64,000 nucleotides of DNA from assembly GCF_050320075.1 (NCBI RefSeq), contig NZ_CP190018.1; one strand, 5' to 3'. The first letter of the stretch is position 1, and every line of letters begins with the position of its first letter. Source of the stretch: Escherichia coli (lineage in GTDB: Bacteria > Pseudomonadota > Gammaproteobacteria > Enterobacterales > Enterobacteriaceae). The position numbers were made by a program, and so were the translations under genes. Of this stretch, positions 53,009-53,746 are shown piece by piece. The notes beneath the pieces are model-generated. The model was not told where the DNA came from. It made no database searches and worked only from the letters and a program-made list of their open reading frames with translations.

Positions 53009-53038
53009 CAATTCCTAACCCATCAACACAATAAATAA

Positions 53039-53746
53039 ATATCCTCCGGCATAGCCGGAGGTTTTTCAAATGCGCCTATAAGGCTCTCTTACCAGCCGCG
53101 CCCTAACAGGCGCACACGATCTGACATTTGCATCCAACTTCGTTACTTACGGCCCGTAAACGGGCTGCCCGGATAGGGAATCGATAACTGCTCTCCCATT
53201 TTATCCTCTTCAAGCTGGTGCTTTATGTAGTCCTGTATCTTCGCCGTGTTCTTACCCACCGTATCGACATAGTACCCTCGGCACCAGAACTCCCTGTTTC
53301 TGTATTTGAATTTCAAATCCCCAAACTGCTCGTAAAGCATCAGACTGCTTTTCCCTTTCAGATATCCCATAAAGCCGGATACGCTCATTTTGGGTGGGAT
53401 TTCCACAAGCATATGGATATGATCTGCGCAGCACTCTGCTTCCAGAATCCGTACGCTTTTCCACTCACACAGCTTTCTCAAAATACTGCCTATCGCCCTA
53501 CGCTTCTCTCCGTAAAACGCCAGTCTTCGGTATTTCGGCGCAAAAACTATGTGATATTTACAGTTCCAGCGGGTGTGCACTAAGCTCTTTTCGTCCCCCA
53601 TTGGGACCCCCTTTTGATTTCTTGTTTGACACTTGCAGTTGCCAGACCGCAAGGTGTTTTAACAAATCAAAAGGGGTTTTAATAACTGGCTCAAAGCTGA
53701 AAGCTTTCCGGAACCCCCAGCCTAGCTGGGGGTTTTCTGTGCACAA
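53039..53746 (-). mobile_element. IS200-like insertion sequence, copy B (complete, about 0.7 kb)
   Basis: Contains the 152-aa tnpA; hairpin cccccagcctagctggggg (53714-53732) near the tnpA-proximal end and cctccggcatagccggagg (53043-53061) near the other end; boundaries approximate (+/-10 nt). Confidence 0.75.
53143..53601 (-). CDS. tnpA: IS200 transposase TnpA (Y1 HUH)
   Basis: MGDEKSLVHTRWNCKYHIVFAPKYRR...ADHIHMLVEIPPK...YYVDTVGKNTAKIQDYIKHQL; 152 aa inside ORF 53143-53652. Confidence 0.9.
   Translation of the reverse strand: MGDEKSLVHTRWNCKYHIVFAPKYRRLAFYGEKRRAIGSILRKLCEWKSVRILEAECCADHIHMLVEIPPKMSVSGFMGYLKGKSSLMLYEQFGDLKFKYRNREFWCRGYYVDTVGKNTAKIQDYIKHQLEEDKMGEQLSIPYPGSPFTGRK

Follow-up and report, generated by a model that had tools for sequence, protein, structure and literature searches.

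The minus strand of a 64,000-nucleotide (nt) stretch of Escherichia coli DNA (RefSeq assembly GCF_050320075.1, contig NZ_CP190018.1; the whole stretch is referred to here as the window) carries, in this order, phoR, brnQ, a copy of the insertion sequence (IS) IS200, proY and malZ. The locus is chromosomal, a 1001-nt stretch comprising the end of brnQ, the element and the start of proY being 100% identical in many complete E. coli genomes. We were concerned with what this IS200 copy, which ends just ahead of the proY start codon, means for the expression of the gene. The element has entered at the conserved brnQ terminator, on the 3′ edge of its T-tract, and the reading that we favour, with a probability of roughly 0.6, is that proY is fed by read-through of this terminator and that the IS lowers the supply. 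The features on which the argument depends are as follows.

53796..55115, minus strand: brnQ, upstream member of the pair, coding for a branched-chain amino acid transporter (open reading frame; annotation in identical RefSeq genomes; Pfam Branch_AA_trans, E = 1.5e-163).
53745..53776, minus strand: native intrinsic terminator of brnQ, stem-loop AACCACGGGGC-TGCGAT-GCCCCGTGGTT running into T6 (terminator-like scan, folding, K-12 identity and cross-species conservation).
53034..53745, minus strand: complete IS200 (E. coli type) whose left end reads (T)GTGCACAGAAAACCCCC..., in the orientation of brnQ and proY (K-12 alignment; sets of left and right junctions).
53712..53734, minus strand: perfect palindrome AACCCCCAGCTAGGCTGGGGGTT of the IS200 left end (sequence; hairpin of about -18.7 kcal/mol; published as nt 12-34).
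53611..53734, minus strand: match to Rfam STnc490 (RF01405), covering the IS200 left end and the 5′ untranslated region (UTR) of tnpA (146.4 bits against a gathering score of 56, E = 6.9e-31).
53143..53601, minus strand: tnpA, intact Y1 (HUH) transposase of 152 amino acids (open reading frame; RefSeq annotation; Pfam Y1_Tnp, E = 7.9e-37, full-length).
53043..53061, both strands: IS200 right-end hairpin CCTCCGGC-TAT-GCCGGAGG (scan: 8 pairs, 7 of them GC, on both strands; folding).
53009..53033, minus strand: native remnant TATTGTGTTGATGGGTTAGGAATTG between the IS and the proY ATG, 25 nt (K-12 alignment; same segment in 5217 IS-free genomes).
51635..53008, minus strand: proY coding sequence, intact, 457 amino acids, APC-family permease, with the ATG at 53008 and the stop at 51635 (open reading frame; annotation; Pfam AA_permease, E = 7.5e-116).
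1..380, minus strand: second IS200 copy (copy A), left part only, cut by the start of the window (repeat comparison; left end beside a hairpin and T-run near cof).

Alignment of the window to the IS-free locus of K-12 reveals identical flanks and a clean insertion of 712 nt, without target duplication. The right terminus of the element, ...CCTCCGGCTATGCCGGAGGATATTTATT, was set by 18 independent full copies at other loci, in which the next base varies, the right-end junctions being drawn from 52 IMG/VR loci that contain the IS200 left-end palindrome; the left boundary was set from copy A and other IS200 sites (36 distinct left-end junctions). The resulting coordinates, 53034..53745, leave 25 nt before the proY ATG, where the K-12 equivalent is 24 nt. 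With T's flanking both ends of the IS, the boundaries carry an uncertainty of 1–3 nt, the element beginning at or within the last T of the terminator, and the choice between a terminus at G and one at T is undecidable. The K-12 empty site, the junction in the carrier genome GmM077, a tandem IS200 pair (locus L055) and the published numbering all agree within 1 nt. In GmM077 the copy is an exact insertion of 711 nt with no added base. The T-run at the right junction (window 53034-53036) differs by one base among carriers, giving 1101- or 1102-nt matches, the window having one T in excess of GmM077 and of what the K-12 empty site would lead one to expect.

Of the interval 53009-53142, 109 nt belong to the right end of IS200 and the other 25 nt are native. 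A sequence-only reading of this DNA had put the end of the element about 30 nt upstream of the proY ATG, with the ribosome-binding site within the native remnant, and on both points it was right: the distance is correct within 5 nt, and the Shine-Dalgarno motif AGGA of proY lies at 53016..53013, inside the remnant. The proY reading frame could be extended to a TTG at 53011 (MMESK...); the ATG at 53008 is the better candidate, in view of the RefSeq annotation and of the spacing from the Shine-Dalgarno motif.

In K-12, the spacer between brnQ and proY measures 75 nt. The TAA of brnQ is followed by ATCACTGAACATTTGTTTT (19 nt), a 28-nt stem-loop (AACCACGGGGC-TGCGAT-GCCCCGTGGTT), a T6 run, ATTGTGTTGATGGGTTAGGAATTG (24 nt) and the ATG, the last two T's of the stem-loop starting the T6 run and four further T's completing it. 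The T-tract thus ends 24 nt from the proY ATG, and IS200 is located exactly between T6 and ATTGTG. An intact spacer is kept at ≥99% identity in 5217 of 5426 complete E. coli genomes; it is split in exactly 207, the same number as carry the brnQ-IS200-proY arrangement, and no insertion other than IS200 was found in the spacer among the 5426 genomes. The stem-loop (53776..53749, followed by T6) has a stem of 11 base pairs, 8 of them GC, and a 6-nt loop, and folds with -28.4 kcal/mol in the K-12 context and -26.1 kcal/mol in that of the window (z about -4.5 relative to shuffled sequences); it is predicted to be a strong intrinsic terminator. The hairpin is the same in K-12 and beside the IS, where it is fully kept, and what the insertion alters is the distal U-tract, from AUUGUGUU to GUGCACAG.

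Because the IS sits at the 3′ edge of the T-tract, the 24–25 nt left ahead of proY are the whole native post-terminator segment and not a shortened spacer, and IS-free strains offer no space for a promoter between the brnQ terminator and the proY ATG. This bears directly on the proposal, made in the sequence-only reading, that a native proY promoter had been displaced by about 0.7 kb. All upstream DNA has indeed moved by 0.7 kb, but the terminator-filled spacer shows no promoter-like motif that could have moved with it, and the longer native spacer which the proposal presupposed is essentially ruled out by the near-invariance of the short one in the 5217 genomes. What the IS has displaced is the brnQ terminator and the brnQ transcription unit, rather than a dedicated proY promoter. 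The two genes have been listed as one operon (PMC8743547; PMC4474525); in keeping with this they share a strand, a short spacer and a conserved order, and their co-transcription is taken here only as listed in those papers.

The same layout extends well beyond E. coli. A degenerate ProY-motif pattern yielded 120 loci from species-representative genomes, and for ProY orthologues of ≥76% identity with upstream sequence available, brnQ lies directly upstream in every locus, across a spacer of about 50–200 nt; the genera with this order include Citrobacter, Enterobacter, Klebsiella, Pantoea, Serratia, Rahnella, Edwardsiella and Yersinia. The succession of brnQ, hairpin, T-run and proY is kept in about 40 Enterobacterales species, and 33 distinct spacers hold a CCACGG...CCGTGG hairpin with a T-run that ends typically 20–33 nt before the proY start. 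Over about 30 species, the inner stem pairs vary in a compensatory manner (GC/AT/TA/CG) and the outer pair is AT or GC, while the CACG/CGTG core is invariant. Since the layout is conserved across genera, we read an intercistronic terminator with almost no space behind it as the ancestral state. The invariance of the core from Escherichia to Yersinia, Serratia and Edwardsiella is unusually deep for a terminator and hints at an additional role of the brnQ-proY hairpin, which gave no match to any Rfam family.

The position of the element would be dictated by the kind of target that IS200 prefers, namely a T-run preceded by a GC-rich hairpin, and be unrelated to any signal of proY; on this account IS200 sits 25 nt from the proY ATG because it inserts just after transcription terminators. 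At 32 of the 36 distinct left-end junctions (IMG/VR loci and the window, both window copies included) the element abuts a GC-rich hairpin and T-run. Random positions of the same DNA pass this test in 0.39% of cases (p about 5e-73), and T-runs of length ≥5 as a whole in 9% (p about 2e-29). A T stands directly 5′ of the left end in all 36 distinct sites, and the insertion is always co-oriented with the terminated transcript (IMG/VR loci L005-L056 and the window copies). The left end of copy A abuts the hairpin CCGGGCAATTGCCCGG and a T7 run beside cof (window 380-410), a site occupied in 138 of the 5426 genomes, fewer than the 207 at the brnQ-proY site. One site, shared by loci L044, L045 and L053, is an exception that keeps the hairpin and not the T-tract, the host hairpin CAGGCCACCGCGGTGGCCTG being followed by ACTGATT without a T-run. 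In L055 (minus strand; palindromes at 6163-6186 and 6873-6896) two IS200 copies stand in tandem with a 710-nt unit, where L050 has a single copy at the same site. The second copy begins immediately beyond the first copy's right-end hairpin and its T-rich tail, which argues that the IS200 right end itself has the form of a target. At 205-228 of L041, an IS200 left-end palindrome lacks the usual 10-nt IS tip and no right end was found within 800 nt downstream, so that this copy is possibly truncated or rearranged.

Terminator-like sequences have been reported to be over-represented immediately upstream of insertion sequences, most strongly for IS200/IS605 (bioRxiv 10.1101/2025.07.22.666184), and both window copies, like the 32 of 36 sites overall, follow this pattern. 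That report presents a family-wide statistic and reads it as limiting transposase expression, whereas the junctions described here are resolved to the nucleotide and place the insertion after the T-run; the observation that the right end is itself a hairpin with a T-rich tail, reused as a target in the L055 pair, goes further than the preprint. Comparison can also be made with IS608 and ISDra2, whose targets, TTAC and TTGAT, base-pair with a guide located 5′ of the left-end hairpin (Barabas 2008, cited in PMC5027513). As far as that citation describes them, IS200 resembles these members of the same family in inserting 3′ of a short target that adjoins the left end, without duplication, and differs from them in that its target is a T-run with a host hairpin rather than a fixed tetra- or pentanucleotide, the hairpin being without a counterpart in the IS608 model as given there. 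Both subterminal hairpins of IS200 have an A-run on their 5′ side (GAAAA and GAAAAA); if IS608, with its pairing of guide and target, is a fair analogy, these runs could base-pair with T-run targets. An A-tract 5′ of the host hairpin was considered as a further target determinant, in the sense of right-end mimicry, and rejected, being found at 21/32 sites and at 112/182 ordinary terminators and hence not enriched. The hairpin at IS200 sites may be a requirement of the enzyme or may merely mark harmless landing places, i.e., survivorship.

We tentatively propose the following picture of proY expression. In IS-free strains, proY would be the distal gene of a brnQ-proY unit and would be fed by read-through of the brnQ terminator. 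Such low but real expression would explain why ProY is described as 'cryptic' for proline uptake (PMC11808508) and yet shows loss-of-function phenotypes. A proY::Tn10 insertion has a phenotype in Salmonella (PMC3485032), and in E. coli random barcode transposon sequencing (RB-TnSeq) and Dub-seq (sequencing of shotgun expression libraries that carry dual barcodes) tie ProY to nickel resistance, which is conferred by overexpressed ProY, with a role in histidine transport also suggested (PMC6338753). On the basis of this literature, the annotated cryptic proline permease is probably a histidine transporter. In strains that carry the insertion, the native terminator is intact, and the 712 nt with two more hairpins behind it would reduce the read-through from brnQ into proY, i.e., exert a polar effect.

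The sequence-only reading had identified a terminator-like hairpin at the far end of the IS, and this hairpin is real (AACCCCCAGCTAGGCTGGGGGTT, 53734..53712); in Salmonella, the left-end hairpin of IS200 is described as a bidirectional terminator against impinging transcription (PMC4513863). Two other hairpins had escaped it, namely the native brnQ terminator outside the IS and the right-end hairpin (53061..53043). The latter is invariant in nearly all full copies and terminator-like both ways, its tail toward proY being ATATTTATT(T)ATTGTGTT and that on the opposite strand TTTTTC; toward proY it is followed by AUAUUUAUUUAUUGUGUU and scores as terminator-like in the scan. A promoter of tnpA that starts near nt 40 of the element (about 53706) and reads toward proY is described as intrinsically weak, with undefined elements (PMC4513863), and would offset the loss only in part. 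Expression of proY is therefore, in the reading we prefer, probably lowered and neither off nor activated, and we infer both the direction and the size of this change.

A consensus scan of 53800..53000 found no sigma-70-like site toward proY at 9/12 or at 8/12 and no extended -10, and likewise no sigma-70-like site on the proY strand within brnQ. By eye, the one candidate for a hybrid promoter at the junction is a TTGAAA -35-like hexamer, which was rejected for a spacer of 20 nt, which is too long.

Several points weigh against a read-through-fed proY with a supply lowered by the IS. As the consensus scan fails to pick up even the real promoters of brnQ and tnpA, its negatives are weak. Both the read-through of the brnQ terminator and its reduction are deduced from sequence rather than from mapped transcripts. 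The left-end hairpin has no T-tract on its sense side, where the next bases are CCGGAAAG, and its efficiency against read-through rests on the Salmonella literature. Rho-dependent polarity within the IS was considered and rejected; the sense strand of the element is G-rich and C-poor (C/G 0.3–1.0), so that Rho is not expected to strengthen the block. Finally, proY is intact, and its ratio of non-synonymous to synonymous substitution (dN/dS) between two carrier lineages is 0.017, which fits continued function and expression. This ratio is informative only if the insertion predates the split of the lineages, and we down-weighted it as proof of function after the insertion, the alleles being 2.6% apart and that of sequence type 38 (ST38) being rare.

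It is doubtful that the insertion is a neutral passenger, with leaky hairpins or a low demand for proY leaving fitness unchanged and the element persisting by descent only. Such an account would fit the clustering of IS200 insertions behind terminators, where disturbance of genes is least likely, as well as the unchanged native terminator, the intact proY and the presence of the insertion in successful clones such as ST38. However, a gene that depends on read-through should be transcribed differently once a documented terminator, together with 0.7 kb of RNA that is poorly translated, has been placed ahead of it, and the distal U-tract has itself been changed by the IS.

We also consider it unlikely that proY had a promoter of its own, in the spacer or the 3′ end of brnQ, which the IS moved 0.7 kb away behind a terminator and thereby silenced the gene. 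With the element in place, 712 nt do come between proY and everything upstream of it, the IS left end has been published as a terminator (PMC4513863), and ProY is dispensable enough to have earned the label 'cryptic', so that silencing could be tolerated in 207 genomes. Yet the room behind the terminator is only 24 nt in E. coli and typically 20–33 nt in other genera, no promoter-like motif occurs in the spacer or in brnQ on the proY strand, and a promoter within brnQ would still need to cross the brnQ terminator; the intact reading frame and the low dN/dS between carrier lineages also speak against a silent gene. Silencing of proY by the insertion, which the sequence-only reading had named as one outcome, is possible.

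The converse idea, that the tnpA promoter or an unrecognised one in the right end reads past the right-end hairpin and raises proY, the insertion being kept as useful, seems improbable: tnpA and proY are co-oriented and only 134 nt separate the tnpA stop from the proY ATG, the interrupted U-tract of the right-end hairpin tail (AUAUUUAUUU) may let termination leak, insertions at this one site are found on two or more genetic backgrounds and ProY overexpression confers nickel resistance (PMC6338753), but no -35/-10 pair at ≥8/12, no extended -10 on the proY strand and no hybrid promoter at the junction was found, the tnpA promoter is intrinsically weak, the original IS200 insertion, hisD984, was polar (PMC4513863), and terminator targeting alone accounts for recurrence at the site. 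Expression of proY from an IS-internal or outward-reading promoter, as envisaged in the sequence-only reading, finds no sequence support in the consensus scans beyond the weak, undefined promoter of tnpA.

Two precedents help to place these readings. In hisD984::IS200 of Salmonella, the element likewise stands between a promoter and a downstream gene of one unit, and its polarity was attributed to the terminator of the element (Lam and Roth 1983, cited in PMC4513863). As described in that citation, the insertion lies within a coding sequence and has a clear mutant phenotype, whereas that in the window is intergenic, behind a pre-existing terminator, and its polar effect is a prediction. The activation of cryptic genes by insertion sequences (e.g., of the bgl operon; PMC11808508) offers a second parallel, in that an IS stands immediately upstream of a 'cryptic' gene. 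Here the similarity ends, as a terminator-like hairpin faces proY, and no outward or hybrid promoter of the kind known from IS1, IS2, IS5 and IS10 pOUT was detected in the consensus scan of limited sensitivity on the proY strand (53800..53000).

The brnQ-IS200-proY insertion is present in 3.8% of complete E. coli genomes (207/5426), pandemic ST38 included, and its carriers form at least two groups on different genetic backgrounds. The group of the window has identical sequence in strains such as 28Eco12 (ST38). The second, in which the element is annotated as IS200C, comprises at least 60 genomes and includes GmM077, strains labelled '405', an O102:H6 isolate and O139:H1 enterotoxigenic E. coli (ETEC); its IS stands at the same nucleotide and has left and right ends identical to those of the window copy. 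A comparison of the GmM077 copy (L004 2757-3215) with window 53230-53595 showed 26 substitutions, all within tnpA, with 6 amino-acid changes. The synonymous divergence (dS) between the window type and GmM077 is 0.27 for tnpA, 0.05 for brnQ and 0.11 for proY, and in proY 36 sites differ between the two groups, with only two amino-acid changes. As tnpA is more diverged than its flanks, a shared ancestral insertion is not established, and the copies at the one site may be either recurrent hits on a hot spot or a single old insertion followed by gene conversion of the reading frame. The proY allele of the window (ST38-type) is rare. Only 158 of 5424 genomes match it at ≥99% identity, and the figure for K-12 and the majority of genomes is about 97.5%, whereas the adjoining 3′ end of brnQ is identical to that of K-12, which suggests a recombination boundary near the IS.

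These data invite a bolder scenario, in which IS200 has landed on the brnQ terminator repeatedly, by independent events in two lineages or more (ST38, and the IS200C group including '405' and O139:H1 ETEC), TnpA takes host terminators as mimics of its own right end, and the insertion has been kept in these successful clones for the retuning of ProY. As a whole, we regard this combination as improbable.

With regard to the element itself, the copy upstream of proY has the hallmarks of the IS200 group, namely a length of about 0.7 kb, subterminal hairpins at both ends, a single Y1 gene and no target-site duplication. tnpA is its sole open reading frame, with Pfam PF01797 (Y1_Tnp) covering profile positions 2-121 of 121, and the match to Rfam RF01405 spans model positions 1-124 of 124. 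A repeat search found no terminal inverted repeats of ≥100 nt, a threshold below which short ones would fall, and the tips (T)GTGCACAG... and ...ATATTTATT are not mutual reverse complements. Over their common part (window 1-380), this copy and copy A are 99% identical. Carrier genomes hold 9–36 IS200 copies, a number that reflects past activity only; transposition competence of the copy is thus a prediction.

The closest known relative is the 707-bp IS200 of Salmonella enterica (PMC4513863, PMC5435999), with which the E. coli element shares the sole gene for a 152-amino-acid Y1 protein, the palindrome about 11 nt from the tip, the 5′ UTR stem-loop and art200 region, and the lack of both inverted terminal repeats and target duplication. 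It differs in its length of 711–712 bp and in its RefSeq annotation as IS200/IS605 family or IS200C. The first 10 nt of the window element, GTGCACAGAA, contrast with GTCTATGGAA in most other copies of the IMG/VR loci. The match to the Rfam STnc490 model, at 53611-53734, lies on the tnpA-sense strand and takes in the palindrome of the left end and the 5′ UTR stem-loop; the art200/STnc490 small RNA is described in the literature as antisense to the tnpA 5′ UTR.

Taken on its own, the insertion upstream of proY is therefore an ordinary IS200 copy in the kind of target usual for IS200; it is polymorphic among E. coli and has a plausible, predicted polar effect on proY. There is no lost proY promoter to explain, and the placement of proY behind an Enterobacterales-wide conserved terminator, without space for a promoter, provides a simple and testable reason for its low expression. 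More generally, the nearness of an IS200 copy to the start codon of the next gene need not carry regulatory meaning. Of greater interest than the insertion may be what emerged beside it: the homing on terminators, seen at single-nucleotide resolution, the possibility that one terminator was hit more than once, and the deeply conserved brnQ-proY hairpin with its invariant core. The landing of enterobacterial IS200 on terminator T-tracts at nucleotide level (32/36 sites) predicts the places of new copies, and the carriers, 3.8% of complete E. coli genomes, are natural variants with which to probe the role of ProY in histidine uptake and nickel tolerance.

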